Virus record (IMG/VR): IMGVR_UViG_2690315831_000002
Source: a virus
Lineage: Duplodnaviria; Heunggongvirae; Uroviricota; Caudoviricetes
Reading direction: 5' to 3' (one strand)
DNA length: 37,164 nt
Part shown: positions 1,144 through 34,774 of the stretch, piece by piece
Layout: the number at the start of each line of letters is the position of its first letter
Position numbering within the stretch: the stretch's first letter is position 1
Position numbers and translations under genes: made by a program
The notes under the pieces: model-generated
What the model saw: the letters and a program-made list of their open reading frames with translations, nothing else
What the model was told of the DNA's origin: nothing
Databases searched by the model: none

Positions 1144-1369
1144 CAGCGATTATCCGTTGGAGTTTTGGGTTTGCGTTTATTGGGAGTTGCGGTTCTGCAA
1201 GCGTTCCTACAAAACGGGAATTTCGGTCAATCATCCAGTAGCGACCAACTTTTATAGCGGGTGGGGCCATCATTTTCCCTTGCGCGTATTTTTTCAGAAC
1301 TCGCTCACTTGGTGCTAAGTCCCCAAATTCTTCTTTAGCCCAGTCCTGTAAAGTGATTAGTCGAGACAT
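1133..1369 (-). CDS. xis: Excisionase
   Basis: 78 aa; N-terminus 'ITLQDWA...' and 'PPAIKVGRYW' resemble lambda Xis ('LTLQEWN...', 'PPPVKDGREY'); position immediately upstream of int with overlapping stop/start. Confidence 0.75.
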   Translation of the reverse strand: MSRLITLQDWAKEEFGDLAPSERVLKKYAQGKMMAPPAIKVGRYWMIDRNSRFVGTLAEPQLPINANPKLQRIIADGC

Positions 1370-5381: not shown

Positions 5382-6989
5382 TTAATTTATCTTTTCAACA
5401 TTTCCATGAATCAACAAGTCGTAGGCAAGAAATAGTTTCCTATACTGGGTTTTTAAATTGTCAACGTCGCATGCCTTGAATTGAACAAACGCTTCTTTTT
5501 TAACATAATCTTCAATCTCCTCTTTGGGGATATTTTTTATGTTCTTAATGACTATAGACAATTCTTTGTACTTTTTGAACGTTGCATCCTTTATATCTTT
5601 GATGTTGGTGTAAATTTTATTTGCATTGATTTTATCTAAGGTGATTTTATTGAGCAAGTCGTCTAGTTTTCCGTGGCGTTCAATGCGTTGATTTAGTTTT
5701 AACACATATTTAGCTGGCAAACTTAACTCTTTCAAATTACATGAGGTTATAGTTTTTGAAAATGGAAGTTGTAATGAGTTTACTGAACCTAATATGAAAT
5801 CTATGGCTAATTTATTAGATATTTCATTTTTATTAAATAAGTAGTCTTCAAGATAATTTATTTCTTTAACTTGTGTGAATACATACTTTTTATCGCCTAG
5901 AGCAACAACTAAATTTTTTCCTTGTTTAACACTTTCTTCAAGTCTGTCTAAGTCAGAAGGTGAAACCAATAGAGTATCTAAGTGCCCTTTTTCACCCTCA
6001 TTAATGATAAGTGTTTTAATGGCTCTTTGATACCTTAAAACATCATAAGGTGAGAGCCCTTCATCAACAGCACTGATCTCATCATAGATCTGTTTATAGT
6101 TATCTGTTTTAACAGATGTATATGTAATTTGTAGCTGTTGATCGGTAATCTGTTTTGGTACTACTTCCTGTTCATTCTCTTTATATTCAATCAAAATTAT
6201 TCTTTCAGCTGATTTTCGACCATCTTCTCTAGGTAGTTGTGAGGAAAAATCAGAAAGAAGTTTCTTTACATTCCTGTCAGTTAAAGAATATCCAAGAAAA
6301 ACTATTGGATTTTTAATCATGTTAGATAGTATCTTGGCACTAATGAGTATAGATTTGTTGTCATATTTTTCGTAATCATCTTTATTTATGATTATTGAGT
6401 GTGGATCCTTTATATCACCATGTATTTTGTATAACTCACTCCAGCCAATAGTATCTTCGAAAAAACCATTATTTCCAATATAGAGTTTTGGAATTACATT
6501 TTGCTCTTGAAGTAAATTTTCTATGAAAGCATCATAATTTGTAGTGATGATTATCTTGGCCTTTTTTATTAATGTTTTAAATGATGCTAATTCATCAAGA
6601 TTTACATCCTTTCTGATTGTGTTATTAGAAAATCTTTGGCATATGGCGTATTTAAATGGTGAAATATCTTCACTAAAAACCCTCTTGGCATCTAGTCCAT
6701 TTAATTTTAATTTGCCAGTCCTAAACAATAGATTGTAATCATTTTCAATTTTACTTGCTGCCTCTGTATAAATCTTATGATCGATATCATTATCACTGTT
6801 ATTTTTATGTGATTCTTTTATTGTTAAAAGATAACTATAGAAATCATTTGTGGGATTTGTTATTTTCCAATACTCGTTTAATAGCTCTTCCCACGTTGGG
6901 TAGTTCTCTAAATATCTTTTTGAAATGCCTGAGCCAATAAAGACTATTGGGTAATTTTTGAATTCAAAATTTTTTTTTGACATATCCAT
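5382..6989 (-). CDS. SIR2-like (ThsA-type) putative NAD+ hydrolase with unassigned C-terminal domain; candidate anti-phage effector
   Basis: 535 aa; SIR2 hallmark motifs 'PIVFIGSGIS', 'IITTNYDAFIE', 'YKIHGDIKDP', 'KDDYEKY', 'PIVFLGYSLTDRNV' resemble the Thoeris ThsA SIR2 domain as recalled; very AT-rich versus flanks; sits between OL and cI (lambda rexAB position), co-oriented with cI; GGA 5 nt upstream of ATG. Confidence 0.8.
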   Translation of the reverse strand: MDMSKKNFEFKNYPIVFIGSGISKRYLENYPTWEELLNEYWKITNPTNDFYSYLLTIKESHKNNSDNDIDHKIYTEAASKIENDYNLLFRTGKLKLNGLDAKRVFSEDISPFKYAICQRFSNNTIRKDVNLDELASFKTLIKKAKIIITTNYDAFIENLLQEQNVIPKLYIGNNGFFEDTIGWSELYKIHGDIKDPHSIIINKDDYEKYDNKSILISAKILSNMIKNPIVFLGYSLTDRNVKKLLSDFSSQLPREDGRKSAERIILIEYKENEQEVVPKQITDQQLQITYTSVKTDNYKQIYDEISAVDEGLSPYDVLRYQRAIKTLIINEGEKGHLDTLLVSPSDLDRLEESVKQGKNLVVALGDKKYVFTQVKEINYLEDYLFNKNEISNKLAIDFILGSVNSLQLPFSKTITSCNLKELSLPAKYVLKLNQRIERHGKLDDLLNKITLDKINANKIYTNIKDIKDATFKKYKELSIVIKNIKNIPKEEIEDYVKKEAFVQFKACDVDNLKTQYRKLFLAYDLLIHGNVEKIN

Positions 6990-7095: not shown

Positions 7096-7788
7096 CTACC
7101 CATGTTTTCTATATGTCTGTGGCATGCTCCCAATAACTTTCCCAAATATAAATACCCGATTCATTTCGTCTTTTTCTATCGGGTCCCACGGTGAGTAGCT
7201 CTTGTTATCAGAGATAACCAGCAGCTTATCCTTCATCATTTGCAGGCGCTTTACATGGGCTGTGTCGTCGTACAGAAACGCATAGATACCATCACCGTCG
7301 AAAGATTTAACAGTGATATCAACGAACAGAAGATCACCTGGTTCGATCGTTCCTGACATGCTGTCACCGCGTACGTTAATGATGCGGATATTTTCTGCCT
7401 TCCTGCCATCGAACATGTGACGAGCATCGTCAAACGAGTACTCAACCGAGCGTAGGACTTCTACAAACTCACGGTTGATGACACCCGGCCCAGCACTGAC
7501 TTCTATATCAAGAACGTCAATTTTGAAGTATTTGGAATGGTTGACAGCAGGCTTCCCTGATTGTTGACCGTCATTTCTCATCGGGCCTATGCCTGATGAG
7601 AGCCACTCTGTTCGAACACCCAATGCATTAGCTATTTCAACAATTTTTGTTGAGCCGCGTGCGTTGCCGCTTGTCAGTCTCCAGATTGTGGGTTGAGCTA
7701 CGCCAGACGCCTTTGCAAGAGCGCCTTGAGACATTCCAGATTGTTCCATCGCTAGGTTTAAGCGATCAGCAAGAGTTTCTTTTTTCAT
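7096..7788 (-). CDS. cI: CI-type prophage repressor (HTH_XRE + S24 LexA-like autopeptidase)
   Basis: N-terminal HTH 'MSQGALAKASGVAQPTIWRL'; C-terminal S24 signature 'VRGDSMSGTIEPGDLLFVD' plus downstream Lys; divergent from cro; start set at internal ATG ('MKKETLADRL'), the longest ORF would start at TTG 7824. Confidence 0.85.
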   Translation of the reverse strand: MKKETLADRLNLAMEQSGMSQGALAKASGVAQPTIWRLTSGNARGSTKIVEIANALGVRTEWLSSGIGPMRNDGQQSGKPAVNHSKYFKIDVLDIEVSAGPGVINREFVEVLRSVEYSFDDARHMFDGRKAENIRIINVRGDSMSGTIEPGDLLFVDITVKSFDGDGIYAFLYDDTAHVKRLQMMKDKLLVISDNKSYSPWDPIEKDEMNRVFIFGKVIGSMPQTYRKHG

Positions 7789-7898
7789 AAGTTTTAATTT
7801 ATACGCTTGCGTATTGATGGTCAAAACACGTTTTGCTATTGATTGGATTAATACGCATTGCTATTATCCATTCATTGTAATACCAATAGGAATTGATA
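7789..7898. promoter_or_regulatory. OR-like operator region with divergent pRM/pR-type promoters
   Basis: Intergenic between divergent cI and cro; palindrome 'ATACGCttGCGTAT'; 'GCTATTG'/'CAATAG' half-sites and 'ATTGATAATG' shared with the OL-like region. Confidence 0.5.
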
Positions 7899-10613: not shown

Positions 10614-11633
10614 ATGTGTTACAGTAATGTTACAGATCGTGATCTTATGGGGCAAATTGCTACTAAACTAAATGACTATCGAAACCCTCCTCAAGGTGGC
10701 ATGAGCATTGATCATGTTAATCGATGGATTAATCAATTTGAGTTAACTGATAGGCGATTTGTCTTAGAGGAAACGGACCGATTAATGGGGATTGGATACT
10801 TTTCTGAGAACGACTATCGCAGGGTTATTAGTAGTATCGCCACTGATGAGCAAAATGAAAGTTTCTTTCAAACTGCAGCGTTTCTCGATATTCAGAACCA
10901 AGGTACCAGTCAATCTGAGTTTTTGGATTTACTTCGAGATGATTGTGTAGAAGAATTCAACGTTGTGACCAGACTTTCACAACGTCAAAGAGTTAGTTCA
11001 TTCCGTGAATTTATTTACGTTGACGATGTTTTATTCTCCGGAGCTAAGGCAATCAATGATTTAATTTGGTTTATTGAGCACTTTAAACTCCAAAATATTA
11101 CAATATTGGTGTACTTTTTAGGTGGGCACACATATTCAACATGGAAGATAAAAGACCAACTTGAACGAAGATTTGCGGGCAGAAATATTTCAGTTGGCGT
11201 TGGTGGAGGTGAGTTTGTATTTGTTGAAAATAAACTCCGAAATAGTTCGAATTCGGAGGTTTTATGGCCAAAAGCGCAAAGTGTATCAATACCTGAATGG
11301 GCTGACGGTCAAATACATTATTTAGGAACATATCGAAACGGTTACGTCGCGAATAAAATTTTTCCTGATGAGCAGAGACGTGATCGTTTTGAAACTATTC
11401 TGACAAAAGTTGGGTTTGATATCCTTGGTCATAGTCAAAATCCCTCTGCTGTCATAAAGCCCTTAGGCTTTTCAACTTTCAATGGTGTTGGGTTTGGCGG
11501 AACTATCTTTACTTTCAGAAACTGCCCAAATAATACCCCTCTCGCGTACTGGTGGGGAACTTATCTTCGAACAGGAAATAGAGCTCTGGATTGCTGGTAT
11601 CCACTTATGAAGCGTAATGTGTATAATCGGTGA
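10614..11633 (+). CDS. Hypothetical 339-aa protein, upstream partner of a NADAR protein (candidate toxin/effector)
   Basis: ORF with AGGA 7 nt upstream; stop overlaps the start of the next gene (GTGA); lower GC than lambda-like flanks; only a weak PRTase-like loop 'FIYVDDVLFSGAKAI'; no confident fold assignment. Confidence 0.7.
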   Translation: MCYSNVTDRDLMGQIATKLNDYRNPPQGGMSIDHVNRWINQFELTDRRFVLEETDRLMGIGYFSENDYRRVISSIATDEQNESFFQTAAFLDIQNQGTSQSEFLDLLRDDCVEEFNVVTRLSQRQRVSSFREFIYVDDVLFSGAKAINDLIWFIEHFKLQNITILVYFLGGHTYSTWKIKDQLERRFAGRNISVGVGGGEFVFVENKLRNSSNSEVLWPKAQSVSIPEWADGQIHYLGTYRNGYVANKIFPDEQRRDRFETILTKVGFDILGHSQNPSAVIKPLGFSTFNGVGFGGTIFTFRNCPNNTPLAYWWGTYLRTGNRALDCWYPLMKRNVYNR

Positions 11634-12247
11634 TCATGAGCTATAGACTATACCTGTTTCACAACACAGTTTCTTTCAGGAAAACCACCGAGAAATGGGG
11701 TGGTCTTTCCAACATGGCCAAAGGATATCCGCTCTTCGTTAATGGTATACCCATTCAATCGAGTGAAATTCTTTACCAAGCATGCCGATATCCAGACTAT
11801 CCAGATATCCAAAGGGTTATTATTACCCAAGCCAACCCTTACGAAGCTAAACAAACCGCCAGAACCTTCGAGGCCAAAACCCGTACTGGTTGGGAAAAAA
11901 ATCGAGTTTCGGTAATGAAATGGTGTGTCTGCGTTAAGCTTTGCCAGAACTGGGAATCGTTCTTCGCGCTATTGGATAGCACAGGAGATCATGACATTGT
12001 TGAGCACTCAGAGAAGGACCAATTTTGGGGGGCTAGTAAGGACTCCGAAGGTAACTTTTATGGCATGAACGTGTTAGGTCGTATCCTTATGGATGCGAGA
12101 GATATTGCAAGAAAGAAGGGGCCTGCAGGGTTTGCTACGATACCGCCGCTACCCTTGGATAGGTTTCTTCTGCTCGGGGAGCAAATACGTGATGTCACTT
12201 TCTCTCCACCACCGATGGATTCAGGGCAAAGCTTATCGCTTTTTTAA
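11630..12247 (+). CDS. NADAR (YbiA/DUF1768-like) domain protein
   Basis: 'GWEKNRVSVMKWCVCVKLCQNWESFFALLDSTGDHDIVEHSEKDQFWGASKDSEGNFYGMNVLGRILMDARD' parallels E. coli YbiA as recalled; translationally coupled to upstream gene (GTG 11630 or ATG 11636). Confidence 0.8.
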   Translation: MIMSYRLYLFHNTVSFRKTTEKWGGLSNMAKGYPLFVNGIPIQSSEILYQACRYPDYPDIQRVIITQANPYEAKQTARTFEAKTRTGWEKNRVSVMKWCVCVKLCQNWESFFALLDSTGDHDIVEHSEKDQFWGASKDSEGNFYGMNVLGRILMDARDIARKKGPAGFATIPPLPLDRFLLLGEQIRDVTFSPPPMDSGQSLSLF

Positions 12248-14471: not shown

Positions 14472-14608
14472 TGTTTGAGTCTTATATGGCAGAACGTATT
14501 CGCCACCGCTGGATACGCCTGCGCTTATATCGTTTCCCCGGTTCTGTTTTGACCGATTACCGGATACTGAAGAATTACGCCAAAACACTGAAAGGAGCTG
14601 CCGCATGA
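14468..14608 (+). CDS. ylcG: YlcG-like small protein
   Basis: 46-aa ORF '[26 protein letters not shown]...' overlapping rusA stop and Q start; matches the DLP12 rusA-ylcG-Q arrangement. Confidence 0.5.
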
Positions 14609-15294
14609 ATACCCAATATTTACAGTATGTCCGCGAGCAACTCATTGTGGCTACTGCTGATTTGAGCGGAGCAACGAAAGGCCAGCTTGAAGCCTGGCTG
14701 GAGCATGCACAATTTGATACTGGTACATATAAACGAAAGAAGCTGCGCATTCTGGATGAGGTAACGGGCAAGATGATTACGCTGGATAATCCGCCGATTT
14801 CCGGTAAGCAGTCGTACGCAAAAGGTTCATCCATTGCACTGGTCAGCCAGGTTGAGTTCTCAACATCTTCATGGCGCCGCGCGGTTCTGTCTCTCGAAGA
14901 ACATCAGAAAGCGTGGTTGCTGTGGAGTTACAGTGAAAACATCAGCTTTGAATACCAGGTGGCGATCACCCAGTGGGCGTGGTCTGAATTCAGGGGGTAT
15001 CTCGGCGCGAAGAGGGTGGCAGGCAAGACCATGGAGCGCCTGAAGAAGCTGATATGGTTGGCAGCGCAGGATGTGAAGAGCGAGCTGGCTGGGCGTGAGA
15101 CTTATGAATACCGGGAACTGGCATCACTGGTGGGAGTGACATCAAAAAACTGGTCTGAGACATTCACTGAACGCTGGGTTGCAATGAAGCACATTTTTCT
15201 ACAGCTTGATAGCGAAGCTTTATTGCTTGTAACGAGAACACGTTCAAAACAAAAGACCACATTTTCACAGCAAAGTATTGCAAAACTGGATTAA
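14605..15294 (+). CDS. Q: Putative late antiterminator Q (non-lambda type)
   Basis: 229-aa ORF between rusA/ylcG and a pR'-like promoter upstream of the lysis cassette; assignment is positional, sequence does not match lambda Q. Confidence 0.55.
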   Translation: MNTQYLQYVREQLIVATADLSGATKGQLEAWLEHAQFDTGTYKRKKLRILDEVTGKMITLDNPPISGKQSYAKGSSIALVSQVEFSTSSWRRAVLSLEEHQKAWLLWSYSENISFEYQVAITQWAWSEFRGYLGAKRVAGKTMERLKKLIWLAAQDVKSELAGRETYEYRELASLVGVTSKNWSETFTERWVAMKHIFLQLDSEALLLVTRTRSKQKTTFSQQSIAKLD

Positions 15295-15367
15295 AAAGCA
15301 TATATTTCATGTAAATCTGATATTCTGCCAATGTTGCATGTGCAACTGTTCGTAGATGTAGTAAGGG

Positions 15368-15396
15368 TTGACTATCCAATTTCTAGGATATAGATT
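15368..15396 (+). promoter_or_regulatory. pR'-like late promoter
   Basis: 'TTGACT' - 17 bp - 'TAGATT' just downstream of the Q-position gene; lambda pR' is TTGACT-17-TAAATT as recalled. Confidence 0.45.
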
Positions 15397-15515
15397 TTTC
15401 TGCAATAAAGGTTTTGGGAATGAAGGGGCGGCTCCCAAAAGATAACCGCCAAGTTGGTAACTTCGACTCGATAATTGGTCTGGGACTCCAACCGTGTCGG
15501 CTGAGAGGTCGACGT

Positions 15516-16319
15516 CTATTTCTTTTTGGGAAGTGGATACTTTAAGCTAACATTTTGAGTTTCTATATCTCGTGGCCCTCGAGTTTTATCATAAAAATAC
15601 CAGATATTAAATTTTCTCTCAGTGTGCCATGTATCATATTGCAAGTGATCCCAGCCTAAATATGAAGCAACATAGTTTGATACTCTTATTTTGGCTTCAG
15701 ATGAAGCTTTTCCTTGATATGCGCACATAACCGCACCTAAGAAAAAATCGGCTAGCTGAATGTTTTCAGATGCTTTAGAGTCTTTTGTCACTACACTGCT
15801 GATTATCCCTTTACGACCAAATTTTCTATTCAATATGTTATTGGCAATAACATTTAGTTCTTCATCAGCCTTTTTATAACGAGATGCGATAGGATCAACT
15901 TCAATCCTGAAGTAACTGTCTCTTTCAGGGTGTGCAGAAATTACAGAGCTAATTTTTGTGGTAATGAGATTTGTGAAGTGCTTTCTCCTTGCCAGGTCAT
16001 AATCTCCATTATGAAATGCCTTATTTACTATTGATTTTTCAACCACGATACAATGAAAAGCTAGCCAAGGAACTCTAAAGAATAAGTCGATCAGCTCAAG
16101 ATAAAATTCAGAGTATCTTTTTGAATGGGCTTTTTGCCATTTTATTTCTTCAAAAAAAACATGTTTTCTGCGTAGTTCTCTGATTAGTTGACAGAAATCC
16201 CCACGGCGTTGGTACTTCATCCACAGACTGCCAAAGCCGTAGAAACGTTGTCCATCAATGCCAGATTCATCGCAAGCAATATGCCAAATTAACTTACCAA
16301 TGTTATCTTTTTCTGTCAT
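15516..16319 (-). CDS. DUF3800-like protein (uncharacterised; candidate defence/moron gene)
   Basis: 267 aa with N-terminal 'IACDESG' and C-terminal 'QLAD', fitting the DES / QxxD description of DUF3800 as recalled; AT-rich; antisense between Q and the holin. Confidence 0.7.
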   Translation of the reverse strand: MTEKDNIGKLIWHIACDESGIDGQRFYGFGSLWMKYQRRGDFCQLIRELRRKHVFFEEIKWQKAHSKRYSEFYLELIDLFFRVPWLAFHCIVVEKSIVNKAFHNGDYDLARRKHFTNLITTKISSVISAHPERDSYFRIEVDPIASRYKKADEELNVIANNILNRKFGRKGIISSVVTKDSKASENIQLADFFLGAVMCAYQGKASSEAKIRVSNYVASYLGWDHLQYDTWHTERKFNIWYFYDKTRGPRDIETQNVSLKYPLPKKK

Positions 16320-16535
16320 CTGCTGGTAATACTCTTAGTCCTTAAAGCATAGTATTTAACCATACATGTAACTCATTGATAAAGATCGTTTTATGCAAGT
16401 TGCATATATTGGTTTTTGAAGGCCATTCGCTTGGTTATAAGATTTTTTAGTTATTTTGAATTGACTGTTTATAACAATATTTCCCATGTAAGTTTTTAAT
16501 CATTAGCGTCCCGGCCTTTCGTCGGCGGCGAAACA

Positions 16536-16853
16536 TTGGCTATTCATATGCACGAAAAAGAGAGCCTTGCCGGAGCGTTCTGGCTCGTTTTGCTGATCAT
16601 CGCAGGTTGGGGCGGTCTGGTCCGCTACCTGATAGATGTGAAGCAGAGTAAAGCAACGTGGAGTTGGATAAATGCTCTGGCTCAGATAGTGGTATCGGGA
16701 TTCACCGGTGTTATTGGTGGCCTGATCAGTATCGAAAGTGGATTCAGTATTTACATGATTCTCGCGACAGCGGGGATTAGTGGTGCGATGGGTTCGGTTG
16801 CACTGACGTACTTCTGGGAACGACTGACAGGGGTGAAAAATGCAAAATCTTAA
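16536..16853 (+). CDS. Holin (non-lambda type)
   Basis: 105 aa with three hydrophobic segments and charged C-terminus; possible dual start 'MAIHM'; immediately upstream of and overlapping the endolysin gene. Confidence 0.7.
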   Translation: MAIHMHEKESLAGAFWLVLLIIAGWGGLVRYLIDVKQSKATWSWINALAQIVVSGFTGVIGGLISIESGFSIYMILATAGISGAMGSVALTYFWERLTGVKNAKS

Positions 16854-17316
16854 TCCTCAGCGTAAAGCTTTCCTCGATATGTTGGCGTGGTCAGAGGGAA
16901 CGGATAACGGGCGACAACCGACACGTAACCACGGTTATGATGTTATTGTTGGTGGTGAACTGTTTACTGATTACTCCGATCATCCTCGCAAACTTGTCAC
17001 GCTAAACCCGAAACTTAAATCAACAGCTGCCGGACGTTATCAGCTTCTTTCCCGTTGGTGGGATGCTTACCGTAAACAGCTTGGTTTGAAAGACTTCTCC
17101 CCCAAAAGCCAGGACGCTGTGGCATTGCAGCAGATTAAAGAGCGTGGCGCTTTACCGATGATTGATCGCGGTGATATTCGTCAGGCAATTGACCGTTGCA
17201 GCAATATCTGGGCTTCACTGCCGGGTGCTGGTTATGGTCAGTTCGAGCATAAGGCTGACAGCCTGATTGCAAAATTCAAAGAAGCAGGCGGAACGGTCAG
17301 AGAGATTGAGGTATGA
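16840..17316 (+). CDS. R: Endolysin R (lambda-type lytic transglycosylase)
   Basis: 158 aa; from '[20 protein letters not shown]' onward near-identical to lambda R as recalled. Confidence 0.95.
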
Positions 17317-17774
17317 GCAGAGTAACCGCGATTATCTCCGCTCTGGTTATCTGCATCATCGTCTGCCTGTCATGGGCTGTTAATCATTACCACGATAACG
17401 CCATTACCTACAAAGCCCAGCGCGACAAAAATGCCAGAGAACTGAAGCTGGCGAACTCGACAATTACTGACATGCAGATGCGTCAGCGTGATGTTGCTGC
17501 GCTCGATGCAAAATACACGAAGGAGTTAGCTGATGCGAAAGCTGAAAATGATGCTCTGCGTGATGATGTTGCCGCTGGTCGTCGTCGGTTGCACATCAAA
17601 GCAGTCTGTCAGTCAGTGCGTGAAGCCACCACCGCCTCCGGCGTGGATAATGCAGCCTCCCCCCGACTGGCAGACACCGCTGAACGGGATTATTTCACCC
17701 TCAGAGAGAGGCTGATTACTATGCAAAAACAACTGGAAGGAACCCAGAAGTATATTAATGAGCAGTGCCGATAG
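17313..17774 (+). CDS. Rz: Spanin inner-membrane subunit Rz
   Basis: 153 aa with N-terminal TMD and coiled-coil region; overlaps R stop; lambda Rz-like. Confidence 0.85.
17533..17715 (+). CDS. Rz1: Spanin outer-membrane lipoprotein Rz1 (embedded in Rz, +1 frame)
   Basis: 60 aa with lipobox 'VVGCTS' and proline-rich body ('[15 protein letters not shown]'), embedded in Rz as in lambda. Confidence 0.75.
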
Positions 17775-31673: not shown

Positions 31674-33656
31674 TTGCTCAACAAGTATAATGGAGTTCCC
31701 GTGGATACAGCAGAACATGATGGCAAATTTGCTTGGGCTAGTTTTTATGAGGCTTTTGCCAACGCGTTACTGACTTGGCGAAATCGTAGAGATGAATTAG
31801 TCAAAGGTATTCATCTAATTGCCTCAGGTGTGGAAGGAATGTCCCATCTGCAGGACAAATCTATTATGGGAGAGATCTTTCCCTTAAAAGACATTTGTCC
31901 GTTTACTACTATGGGCTTGTTCAATCGTAACTTGACCGACAGCAATCGCAAAATTATTGCTGCCAAGCTAGCGAATTTGTTGGGCGTGAACGAACCGATT
32001 CCTGACTCCTTTGCCGGAATCCCGCTGTTGAATAACCAAAAATCTTGGTTCTTTGGTTATGAAAAGTCACGCGACCCTAATGACATTGAATGCTTGTGGG
32101 AAATGTTCTCGCAGGCAATGACCTTTGCGGATAACCAGAATACTAACTCTGCAGACTTCACTGCCGCATATGACATCGCTTCTACAGTAATGAATGTCGG
32201 TTGGAATCTCACCATGGGGTTGTACTGGACCCGTCCTTGGTTCTACCCTACTTTAGATAGCCAGTCGCAGTATTACATTCAGACAGTGTTAAACATTAAG
32301 ATCATTAAAAACGGGGCAAAAGGTCGCTGTAGTGGACAAAGTTACCTGAGTCTTATGCGGGCGCTGAACGAGGTCTTTACCCAACCAAACTATCCGGTTC
32401 ATTCTTTCCCAGAACTTTCTTTATCAGCGTGGAATACAGATCTTAGCCAGTCTAAAGATGAGGTGGCAAATAGAACGTGGAAAGCCTCTTTACTGAATAA
32501 AATTAAGGCGTTATGCCTGAAAAAAAATGGCCCTTATTTCACTGCTTCGGAGTTGGAAGAAAACTACTTGGACGTATTCAAGGTAGAGCATCCTGAGAGC
32601 AAAACAGTTACAAGCTCAATCTACTTTTATCTACAGAAACTATGCAATGATGATGAGTTAAAGTCCCTTGAGTCCGGAAATTATGAATACCTGAATTTTG
32701 AGAAAAACGAATCCCAGACGATAACTGAGGAAACTGTCGAAGAGAGTGCGCCGTTGCCAAAACTCACTCACGTTCCTTATGACATCAGTCATCTGGTGCA
32801 GGATGGCTGTTTCTTGGAAGAGGCTAAGATCCAACTCACACTTCAGCGCCTGATCGACAAGAAAAACCTGATATTACAAGGACCACCCGGAACTGGAAAA
32901 ACCTGGTTAGCGCGACGTTTGGCGTACTGCTTGATGGGAGAAAAAGCACCTGAGCGTATTAGCGCGGTGCAATTTCACCCGAACCTCTCTTACGAAGACT
33001 TTATTCGCGGCTGGCGTCCAGGTAAAGAAGGGCAATTGACGCTAATTGATGGACCTTTTGTAAATGCAATCAAAACTGCAGTCAATAATCCTACCTCGAA
33101 ATATGTGGTGATAATTGAAGAGATTAATCGTGGCAATCCGGCGCAAATCTTCGGTGAAACACTCACGTTGATGGAAGCAGATAAACGCACGCCGACTGAG
33201 GCATTATCTCTTTCCTATCCTAAAAATGATGATGAAAAAATATACATTCCTGAGAATCTATATATCATCGGTACGATGAATATTGCAGACCGCTCACTCG
33301 CACTACTTGACCTAGCGCTGCGCCGTCGTTTCGCGTTTATCGATCTAAAGCCAGCTTTTAATGACGCGTGGAGAAACTGGGTAAATTATAATTACGCAAT
33401 TGATTTTGACATGTTAGCATTCATCAAATCTCGACTGACGGTACTTAACGATATGCTGGCAAAAGATGTTACCTTAGGACCACAGTTTTGTATCGGTCAC
33501 AGCTATGTCACCCCAGCTATCGGCCAAAAAATCAACGATGCCCAGGCTTGGTATGAACAAGTCGTTGATACAGAGATCTGCCCTTTGCTCGCCGAATATT
33601 GGTTCGATGCTCCAAATAAAGTCGATGAAGCCAGAAAAGTGTTATTAGCAAAATGA
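31674..33656 (+). CDS. mcrB: McrB-like AAA+ GTPase subunit of a type IV restriction system, with long unassigned N-terminal domain; start uncertain (TTG)
   Basis: C-terminal 300 aa closely resemble E. coli McrB (e.g. 'NLILQGPPGTGKTWLARRLAYCLMGEKAPERISAVQFHPNLSYEDFIRGWRP', 'YIIGTMNIADRSLALLDLALRRRFAFIDL') as recalled; N-terminal about 370 aa unlike the K-12 McrB N-terminal domain. Confidence 0.85.
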   Translation: MLNKYNGVPVDTAEHDGKFAWASFYEAFANALLTWRNRRDELVKGIHLIASGVEGMSHLQDKSIMGEIFPLKDICPFTTMGLFNRNLTDSNRKIIAAKLANLLGVNEPIPDSFAGIPLLNNQKSWFFGYEKSRDPNDIECLWEMFSQAMTFADNQNTNSADFTAAYDIASTVMNVGWNLTMGLYWTRPWFYPTLDSQSQYYIQTVLNIKIIKNGAKGRCSGQSYLSLMRALNEVFTQPNYPVHSFPELSLSAWNTDLSQSKDEVANRTWKASLLNKIKALCLKKNGPYFTASELEENYLDVFKVEHPESKTVTSSIYFYLQKLCNDDELKSLESGNYEYLNFEKNESQTITEETVEESAPLPKLTHVPYDISHLVQDGCFLEEAKIQLTLQRLIDKKNLILQGPPGTGKTWLARRLAYCLMGEKAPERISAVQFHPNLSYEDFIRGWRPGKEGQLTLIDGPFVNAIKTAVNNPTSKYVVIIEEINRGNPAQIFGETLTLMEADKRTPTEALSLSYPKNDDEKIYIPENLYIIGTMNIADRSLALLDLALRRRFAFIDLKPAFNDAWRNWVNYNYAIDFDMLAFIKSRLTVLNDMLAKDVTLGPQFCIGHSYVTPAIGQKINDAQAWYEQVVDTEICPLLAEYWFDAPNKVDEARKVLLAK

Positions 33657-34774
33657 CGACAATAACCGGGAGTGAGCAACATACAGCATCACGTATTCCC
33701 ATGCGAAATATCTGGATGCTGATGCTGTACGCTTCAGATCTGTTTCGTCAGTTAGGGCGCAATCAGATCGCAGTAGAAGATAACCCAGCAGAAATCCCCG
33801 ACCTGGTGGCGACAATCCTCCTTCATGAGATTACGCTGCGCCGACGTCGCAATTTAAATATGGGATACCAAACTTGTCATGCGGCCCTGAACCGGGTGAG
33901 AGGGCGCATTGACATACTGTATACTGCCAGTCATCAACTACTGGAACGGGGACAGGTTGCCTGCCATTTTCAAGACATAACCCTCAACACCCCCCGAAAT
34001 CGCTATGTTCGCTGTGCGTTAGAACGTCTGGCCTCAATCATAGTGAAACCGTCTTTGGCGGCAGATTGCCATTTTATGGCAATATCACTTCGCCGTGAGG
34101 GGATAAATGGAGGATATCCTGCCCCCCACGAATTACCCTCAGTGTGGCGTTTTGGACGCCATGATGCCGCAGATAAACCGATGGTCGATGCCGCACGATT
34201 AGCTTTTGAACTGCTGATGCCGACCGAAGATCAAGGCCAATATCTTTTACCTGCGCCCTCAAATAACCTTTACTGGATGAGAAGACTATTTGAAAAAGGT
34301 ATCGCTGGCTTATATCGTGTACACCTTGCCAAAACAACTTGGCAGGTCTCTGCAGGGAAAGAGCTGAAATGGGCGTTGAGCGATCAAAGTGCAGGTAGTG
34401 CAGAGATTTTCCCGACAATGAAGTCAGACATTATTCTGGAACACAAGACTGCCCAGCGGCGTATTATTATCGATACCAAATTTAATTCGATTCTGACAAA
34501 GGGTTGGCATCGGGAGCAATCACTACGTAATGGCTATATTTATCAGCTATATACCTACCTTAGAACACAGGAGAACAAGACGGATCCGCTTTCGCTCAAT
34601 GCCGCTGGTCTTCTACTTCATCCAGCTGTTGGCTATATGCTTAATGAGTATGTTGTCACTCAGGGACATAAGATCCATTTTGCTACAGTAGATATGACGG
34701 TAGATGCTAAAGCAATTAAAAAACAATTGCTGGCAATAGCCCATGATTGTGCAGGAGTCGCGGTTGATGACTAA
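33653..34774 (+). CDS. mcrC: McrC-like nuclease subunit
   Basis: 373 aa, start overlaps mcrB stop (ATGA); N-terminus 'IPMRNIWMLMLYA' parallels McrC 'IPVRNIYYMLTYA' as recalled; 'IIIDTKF' matches the PD-(D/E)xK-type core position. Confidence 0.85.
   Translation: MTTITGSEQHTASRIPMRNIWMLMLYASDLFRQLGRNQIAVEDNPAEIPDLVATILLHEITLRRRRNLNMGYQTCHAALNRVRGRIDILYTASHQLLERGQVACHFQDITLNTPRNRYVRCALERLASIIVKPSLAADCHFMAISLRREGINGGYPAPHELPSVWRFGRHDAADKPMVDAARLAFELLMPTEDQGQYLLPAPSNNLYWMRRLFEKGIAGLYRVHLAKTTWQVSAGKELKWALSDQSAGSAEIFPTMKSDIILEHKTAQRRIIIDTKFNSILTKGWHREQSLRNGYIYQLYTYLRTQENKTDPLSLNAAGLLLHPAVGYMLNEYVVTQGHKIHFATVDMTVDAKAIKKQLLAIAHDCAGVAVDD

Follow-up and report, generated by a model that had tools for sequence, protein, structure and literature searches.

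DUF3800 proteins form a widespread RNase H-like family that is found in retrons, CRISPR accessory loci and prophage hotspots. They serve as effectors in type VII retrons (PMC7736814) and as accessory proteins of Cas12a2/a3 and type VI-F systems, and their genes associate with 11 or more unrelated structured RNAs (Weinberg et al. 2017, PMC5737381). Here, we analyzed a gene of this family in a 37,164-nt tailed-phage sequence (IMG/VR record IMGVR_UViG_2690315831_000002, Caudoviricetes), which at its full length is referred to as the window. The gene (15516..16319, minus strand) lies between the Q antiterminator gene and the lysis genes of an E. coli prophage. A preliminary description, made from the letters of the DNA, had treated it as a lone gene and missed an RNA partner that is homologous to the 6S leader RNA of phage lambda. 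Alignments identify this partner as a structured small RNA (sRNA) of ~125 nt (15402..15528, plus strand) that is convergent with the DUF3800 gene and overlaps its stop codon. Comparison of loci indicates that sRNA and gene together make up a mobile cassette of ~1.17 kb. As far as the literature searched goes, the sRNA adds a further motif to those associated with DUF3800, and no earlier one is homologous to a classical phage transcript.

The DUF3800-I to -XI, drum and skipping-rope motifs (PMC5737381) are, like the RNA in the window, conserved RNAs on the strand opposite to the adjacent gene that end in a terminator-like hairpin. An adjacent conserved structured RNA with covariation, the mark of such a pairing, is found here as well. 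However, the sRNA matched no Rfam 15 family over 42 related loci, matches up to E ≤ 10 included. The window gave no match at gathering score or at E ≤ 10, the sRNA gave none in the P2-like phage loci, and the 40 other loci yielded unrelated RNAs alone. The comparison with the published motifs was made through the Rfam models, which include DUF3800-I, DUF3800-IX and others.

Since DUF3800 genes have been reported to be flanked by structured RNAs (PMC5737381), we compared the flanks of 73 loci encoding relatives of the DUF3800 protein. A stretch of ~105 nt past the DUF3800 stop codon (~15411-15513) is conserved more strongly than the protein: downstream DNA and protein are 94% and 83% identical in Pantoea, 88% and 73% in Xenorhabdus, 84% and 72% in Erwinia and 77% and 63% in phage Chuche. 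Among 13 Enterobacterales sequences, 97.8% of the alignment cells are paired (33-62% in slid registers), with five compensatory pairs (0-1 when slid) and a covariation of 0.166 (slid ≤0.065). Two larger alignments were fitted to a covariance model, which favours the model structure: 18 sequences including Pasteurellaceae gave 95.9% paired cells, compensatory changes in 15 of 26 pairs (slid 1-6) and a covariation of 0.419 (slid ≤0.119), and an independent set of 36 distinct viral sequences gave 95.9%, 12 compensatory pairs (slid 2-7) and 0.315 (slid ≤0.114). Helices B, C, D and E were also obtained independently by RNAalifold. The covariance model, R1, scores the window RNA at 121 bits and matched sequences outside its training, namely the Pasteurellaceae loci (Mannheimia phage PHL101, Rodentibacter, Muribacter and a metagenome-assembled genome) and a Pantoea symbiont. 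There, helix A reads CACAAAG/CUUUGUG instead of UUUUGGG/CCCAAAA, and helix C reads GUGAG/CUCAC instead of GUUGG/CCAAC.

These comparisons describe an sRNA with four covarying helices plus a predicted pseudoknot. Helix A (15412-19/15433-40) is followed by the predicted H-type pseudoknot B (15427-31/15446-50, GGCGG/CCGCC), helix C (15453-57/15488-92), helix D as a hairpin nested in C (15462-67/15478-84) and the terminal hairpin E (15496-15502/15507-13) with the GNRA loop GAGA (15503-06) and an invariant G.U pair. In its U-rich tail (15515-27), the sRNA is complementary to the last four DUF3800 codons (K-K-K-stop), and hairpin E together with this U-tract scored as terminator-like in a site scan. 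The sRNA is read on the plus strand, convergent with the gene: it has three or four invariant G.U pairs, and reading from the gene strand would turn each of these into an A.C mismatch. It is conserved from end to end save for ~10 A/U-rich nt at the 5' end. The region is non-coding, since indels between close relatives break the frame; a small protein over it (43-aa open reading frame (ORF) 15414-15545) was excluded by these 1- and 2-nt indels. Three points limit the case for the structure: the fit to the model in the two larger alignments; pseudoknot B, which is invariant in all sequences and so outside the reach of covariation; and the single-sequence fold energy of the sRNA, which, being no better than that of shuffled sequences (z = +0.44; gene strand z = -0.72), is uninformative.

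A sigma-70-like promoter is found upstream of helix A in every context, P2-like phages included. In the window it lies at 15368..15396 on the plus strand (TTGACT-17-TAGATT). Locus L011 has the same elements (TTGACT-17-TAGATT), L014 has TTGACG-17-TATACT, and the Pasteurellaceae loci L053 and L055 have TTGCAT-16-TATTAT and TTGAAA-17-TACTAT. The sRNA promoter is similar to lambda pR' (TTGACT-17-TAAATT) but lies ~15 nt nearer to helix A, which leaves no room for the pause and Q-binding element region of lambda.

The relation to lambda emerged when viral contigs were scanned for a 20-nt core of the RNA, without regard to the proteins encoded. The scan gave at least 120 contigs, 80 loci were fetched, and R1 found the full-length RNA in all of them except for one hit that is cut by the locus end. 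A DUF3800 gene is present in 10 of the ~74 testable fetched loci, always convergent and 51-62 nt from the core. The fetched loci without the gene have lower R1 scores (64-83 bits), and most of those examined have the RNA 98 nt past a lambda-type Q gene, with the lysis genes following it. The element of this class is 98.7% identical to lambda (J02459, 44588-44738). On lambda itself, R1 matches 44604-44728 with 66.4 bits (E=5e-20); helices A-E are kept, A in a compensatory form peculiar to lambda (GUAGUGAG/CUUACUAC), and the element is followed by tR' as a separate hairpin. Sequence and structure thus make the sRNA a homologue of the core of the lambda pR' leader, the homologous stretch being nt ~+17..+141. 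We take the transcript that carries this stretch to be the 194-nt '6S RNA' made from pR', for which we know of no function established in 50 years. The lambda-type element is present in 454 of 5,426 complete E. coli genomes, where it is unannotated. The annotated lambda orf-64 (lambda 44621-44815; 822-1016 of our lambda locus L202) overlaps the structured RNA and tR', and the 43-aa ORF of the window likewise lies over the element. The indels in cassette-linked homologues suggest that the ORFs called over the RNA element are not genes.

The DUF3800 gene is intact and, judged from its relatives, under purifying selection, since it is full length compared with ~500 homologues (~260-270 aa each, from Gammaproteobacteria and beyond) and keeps every invariant residue of the family. 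Its product of 267 aa, with an ATG start, matches PF12686 (DUF3800) at residues 16-197 with 42.7 bits (E=1.2e-10), where the Pfam gathering cutoff is 21 bits. It also matches the PADLOC defence candidate PDC-M04A (PDLC04353; 116 bits, E=3.4e-34) and PHROG 3732 (456.6 bits), to which no function is assigned; NCBIfam has no model matching this ORF. The existing annotation reads 'DUF3800 domain-containing protein'. The motifs C16-D17-E18-S19-G20 and Q188-L-A-D191 are both invariant in 33 homologues down to 52% identity, as are D17, E18, D142, D152, E153, Q188 and D191. Among these, D17, E18, D142 and D191 (of Q188xxD191) are candidate catalytic residues; D152-E153 is also invariant. The preliminary description had recognized an AT-rich ORF of 267 aa antisense to the late operon and had assigned it to DUF3800 by CDESG and QLAD. 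All of this is borne out, with a GC content of 0.34-0.39 across the ORF versus ~0.48-0.54 in the flanking Q and lysis genes. The alternative it had raised, a degraded fragment of a known gene, is excluded by the full length and the intact invariant residues.

A likely promoter of the DUF3800 gene (16354..16387, minus strand) has a -35 element TTATCA (16382-16377), a 17-nt spacer, a -10 element TTAAAT (16359-16354) and an extended -10 TG at 16362-16361. With 8 of 12 hexamer matches it falls under the threshold of the promoter scan and was assigned from conservation: this stretch is the sole conserved upstream block across the Enterobacterales loci. A GATC (16384-16387) lies directly upstream of the -35 element. 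This Dam methylation site is kept in most Enterobacterales copies and could link DUF3800 expression to DNA methylation or replication state. The site scan gave no terminator-like site on the gene strand past the DUF3800 stop, and the mRNA therefore probably runs across the RNA gene.

Structure prediction, which the preliminary description had proposed as a check for a nuclease-like fold, gave an RNase H2-like fold. The AlphaFold model of the DUF3800 protein, built with the 33-sequence alignment, is confident, with a predicted local distance difference test (pLDDT) score of 90.2 and a predicted template modelling score (pTM) of 0.89, and the modelled fold holds a complete acidic motif set. It also resembles PIWI and RuvC domains. 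The adjacent D-E pair presumably recalls the 'DE' motif of RNase H2, a likeness of motif and not of superposed structures. A sequence-only search of the Protein Data Bank with the DUF3800 protein gave no relative. RNase H2-like fold predictions have been published for other DUF3800 proteins (PMC7736814, PMC10910872), and our model agrees with them. Type VII retrons (Mestre et al. 2020, PMC7736814) also combine a DUF3800/RNase H2-like protein with a structured non-coding nucleic acid in a module of the defence type, alongside a reverse transcriptase and msr/msd. Here, however, the neighbours are Q, holin, lysozyme and Rz genes, and neither a reverse transcriptase domain nor a match to a retron RNA family is found. 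Moreover, the glutamine of QxxD, reported as lost in the retron-linked clade (PMC7736814), is kept.

The Q gene next to the cassette (14605..15294, plus strand) is of the phage-82 type (PF06323, 319.6 bits) and 90.6% identical at the nucleotide level to the phage 82 Q gene (X92588). A promoter scan and homology place the Q82-type late promoter pR' with its Q-utilization and pause region at 15278..15336 on the plus strand, with -35 TTGCAA (15278-83), -10 TATATT (15301-06) and an inferred +1 at 15313. Downstream follow an extended -10-like pause element TG-a-TATTCT (15318-26), GCC at 15327-29 (+15..+17) and AATGTT. For 82 pR', an extended -10-like pause element, a GCC discriminator at +15-17, an AT-rich stretch and a pause at +25 have been described (PMC5001585), and by sequence the window matches this promoter if +1 is 15313. 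The late promoter must overlap the Q end, since phage 434, whose Q is Q82-like, has an annotated terminator just 49 nt past the Q stop. The preliminary description had instead taken 15368-15396 for a Q-dependent pR'-like late promoter. The site is real; however, it is the sRNA promoter inside the inserted cassette, its position is kept upstream of the sRNA in P2-like phages without Q, and the 82-type promoter overlaps the Q end at 15278-15306.

The homology with other Q82-type phages stops at 15336 (+24), which places the cassette junction at the pause site. The promoter block up to this point is common to a phage with an empty site, in E. coli N3 (L006), and to a Stx-type phage (L007). E. coli N3 has the same Q family and an identical holin protein, with a gap of 321 bp between them versus 1,253 bp in the window. 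In a pairwise alignment the shared backbone ends at ~15336 and resumes at ~16503. The low-GC insert (15337..16502) stands in place of ~235 bp that carry two terminator-like hairpins in N3. On these alignments, the cassette is spliced exactly at the +24/+25 pause site of the phage-82-type late leader and replaces its terminator region. The Stx-type phage with the same Q carries a PemK/MazF toxin, a methyltransferase and tRNAs between Q and the lysis genes, whereas the slot of the window has no tRNA genes. The accessory slot that the preliminary description had postulated is supported. Its further claim, that Q-dependent late transcripts must cross the DUF3800 gene antisense, is upheld from the layout, and the inverse tie of DUF3800 expression to lytic induction that it had drawn from this may hold. 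The lysis cassette (16536..17774, plus strand; LydA-type holin, GH24 endolysin, Rz/Rz1) holds the first late genes and is reached only by transcription across the cassette, and we infer that late transcripts run sense through the sRNA and antisense through the DUF3800 gene. The sRNA would occupy +100..+201 of the inferred pR' transcript, with its terminator-like hairpin and U-tract. Like lambda 6S, it sits between a constitutive late promoter and the lysis genes. In contrast, lambda has no DUF3800 gene, and its element lies ~17 nt past the +1 of a Q-lambda-type promoter and is followed by the separate tR' hairpin. The cassette RNA has its own promoter in addition to its place in a Q82-type leader, its own hairpin E would be the first terminator, and the nuclease gene abuts it.

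The cassette is not confined to lambdoid phages. Among the 73 protein-anchored loci, all 18 R1 hits are on the opposite strand directly past the DUF3800 stop. The cassette occupies Q-lysis slots of lambdoid phages, a site beside the portal gene in P2-like phages and a site after tail gene D in P2-like phages of Pasteurellaceae, and its junction, with the U-tract over the stop codon, is identical in all three settings. We take the portal-side and tail-gene-D sites to be known accessory and defence hotspots of P2-like phages. In Pasteurellaceae, the sRNA and the DUF3800 protein have diverged together. A megablast search of the cassette against sequenced phages gave no match. It is found in 86 of the 5,426 complete E. 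coli genomes; 44 copies are full length and several others are cut by IS1. Truncated cassettes (L004, E. coli DAM; L005, LH13-b; H58-H64) account for about half of the cassette-bearing E. coli genomes. They have lost the RNA together with the 3' part or the whole of the gene, with IS1 at the break, and are located in defective prophage fragments adjoining trkG.

A marine clade of the same protein subfamily (61-68% identity; Colwellia, Psychromonas, Ferrimonas and Vibrio; loci L018, L019, L023, L026, L027, L028 and L066) has a different conserved element ~95 nt past the DUF3800 stop. Folded individually on the strand opposite to the gene, the sequences give a long and almost perfect hairpin (-28 to -38 kcal/mol); its internal loop (GCUAAAAU...GAGGCACGAAC) is conserved, and its arms vary between genera. 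Neither R1 nor Rfam matches this element. In Serratia bockelmannii (L046), a C4 antisense RNA with a1/b1 targets and isrK (303-543) lies a few kb from the DUF3800 homologue, and a transfer-messenger RNA gene (5718-6081) lies on its other side, which indicates that this island holds a P1/P7-like immunity region.

The identical junction in three settings, the joint divergence in Pasteurellaceae, the RNA-partnered nature of the family and the marine element all argue for a functional tie between RNA and gene. A role in defence is suggested by the retron and CRISPR functions of the family, the PADLOC candidate match, the hotspot sites and the other defence genes of the prophage, which also carries SIR2, PRTase-CE plus NADAR and McrBC genes. 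Overall, we give about even chances to the explanation that the intact nuclease-fold gene and the 6S-related RNA form an RNA-partnered accessory module, probably for defence or exclusion. A more specific and tentative proposal, to which we assign clearly less than even chances, is that the RNA acts like an antitoxin, binding the nuclease as its specific ligand and restraining or titrating it. In the lysogen, DUF3800 would be expressed from its own weak conserved promoter, and the RNA would have two sources, its own promoter and pR', the latter giving a ~215-nt transcript terminated at hairpin E. Upon induction, Q82-modified polymerase would read through hairpin E, giving an excess of sense RNA and transcription antisense across the nuclease gene before the holin gene is reached. 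In this proposal, the pair would be a prophage-borne defence or exclusion module that is switched off during the prophage's own lytic growth. StxS- and IsrK-type sRNAs (PMC7547250) are similar in being short RNAs from a constitutive late promoter in lysogens that join a read-through transcript on induction. However, they have no sequence relation to the sRNA and are Hfq-dependent regulators without an adjacent nuclease partner. Type III toxin-antitoxin and abortive infection systems (ToxIN, AbiF-like) share a nuclease with a dedicated adjacent small RNA on mobile elements, and phages can carry mimics of their RNAs. The cassette differs from these systems in that the RNA is a single copy without tandem repeats, is convergent rather than upstream and co-directional as in ToxIN, and the predicted nuclease fold is RNase H2-like rather than ToxN/Kid-like. 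A protein partner was also considered: in Chuche and PHL101, the gene is preceded by small ORFs that are unrelated, one of them with an Excalibur domain and neither with a PADLOC match. Our literature search found no functional work on PDC-M04 or on the DUF3800-I, drum and skipping-rope RNAs.

Several observations weigh against a functional RNA-nuclease pair. The RNA is far commoner without a DUF3800 gene than with one, and 64 of the ~74 testable viral loci hold it alone, in lambdoid late leaders. At least one P2-like phage, the viral contig L138, has a high-scoring copy of the RNA (113 bits; 1224-1349, minus strand) without DUF3800. An Ogr-like zinc-finger ORF next to the portal gene converges on this copy, which is probably the remnant of a cassette that lost its nuclease gene. 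A distant DUF3800 gene scored as essential in a Legionella transposon sequencing study, which argues against DUF3800 as a simple toxin. In addition, PDC-M04 is a multi-gene candidate system of which the DUF3800 protein matches component A, and as for a second component nearby, its models matched none of nine neighbouring ORFs of the window and none of the small ORFs upstream of the gene in P2-like phages.

It is somewhat less likely than the ligand or antitoxin reading that the nuclease recognizes or cleaves RNAs of this fold, lambda-type leaders included. In its explicit form, superinfecting phages of the lambda type would have their late expression blocked by the DUF3800 endonuclease, which would recognize this fold in their late leaders either as RNA or as an RNA:DNA hybrid; the resident RNA copy would serve autoregulation or buffering. 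RNase H2-like folds act on RNA-containing duplexes, the fold of the RNA is common to the cassette and many lambdoid leaders, and the gene lies within a defence-rich prophage. Yet the RNA copy carried by the P2-like phages of Pasteurellaceae is left unexplained and no distinction between self and non-self is visible, and we regard this form as unlikely.

The frequency of the RNA on its own, in 454 E. coli genomes as compared with the 86 that have the cassette, bears on the explanation that the two are together by hitch-hiking. In this case, the RNA would be a cis-acting element of lambdoid late leaders, with a role in stability, processing or polymerase action; the gene would have been inserted beside it and the pair then copied together without a functional tie. 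That most RNA copies among the fetched loci lie without DUF3800 at a fixed 98 nt past lambda-type Q genes, and that lambda keeps the structure with its own compensatory helix A, agrees with this. However, RNA and gene also occur together in P2-like phages without Q or pR', with the same junction and a separate promoter. The parallel change of RNA and protein in Pasteurellaceae, the general partnership of DUF3800 genes with RNAs (PMC5737381) and the different RNA-like element at the same spot in the sister clade make hitch-hiking improbable in our view.

The convergent overlapping layout and the missing terminator on the gene strand would also suit an sRNA that, as in type I systems, does no more than pair with the 3' end of the DUF3800 mRNA, or with a read-through 3' untranslated region, and so repress it. 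We consider this very improbable, as the RNA has kept a structure of several helices, with compensatory changes and invariant loops, and is conserved even in lambda, which lacks a DUF3800 mRNA as pairing partner. Finally, it is scarcely credible that the sRNA guides DUF3800 to complementary nucleic acid as in Argonaute or TnpB/IscB: the fold does resemble PIWI and RuvC, and known RNA-guided nucleases use RNase H folds and gene-adjacent RNAs, but the variable guide segment of those systems is absent from an RNA conserved over its whole length save for the 5' A/U-rich nucleotides, and the protein is a single small domain.

Further genes of the prophage are of interest in their own right. A gene for a 535-aa SIR2-like protein (PF13289; 5382-6989, minus strand) lies beside the CI-like repressor gene (7096-7824, minus strand; Peptidase_S24 and helix-turn-helix domains) and is probably another prophage defence gene, at the position of lambda rexAB. 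In the nin region, a gene pair encodes PRTase-CE (PF24390) and NADAR (PF08719) proteins (10614-12247, plus strand); in the identical prophage of E. coli A35, RefSeq names these 'phosphoribosyltransferase-like anti-phage protein' and 'NADAR family anti-phage protein'. A Bor/Iss lipoprotein gene (serum resistance; 17806-18147, minus strand) follows antisense right after the lysis cassette, as in lambda. An acyltransferase gene (Acyl_transf_3; 29545-30633, minus strand), possibly for O-antigen modification, and a pair encoding a McrB-like AAA_5 ATPase and McrC (31674-34774, plus strand) come after the tail-spike-like gene (26892-29069) and could lie either inside or outside the prophage.

The partner RNA, its homology to lambda 6S and the placement of the cassette at the Q82 pause site were found neither in Rfam nor in the literature searched. 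The findings correct the annotation of an RNA that goes unannotated in 454 E. coli genomes and of lambda orf-64, which overlaps it. As this new DUF3800 partner RNA resides in E. coli prophages, standard E. coli genetics can be applied to it, and given the splice at a Q82-type pause site, prophage induction would flip the ratio of RNA to nuclease. We think it unlikely, though of wider consequence, that 6S RNA and its relatives in lambdoid leaders are orphan DUF3800 partner RNAs which, made constitutively from pR', neutralize the DUF3800 modules of resident prophages as decoys or antitoxin mimics or exploit them otherwise. If true, this would amount to an RNA-based counter-defence and would give the 50-year-old lambda 6S RNA a function.

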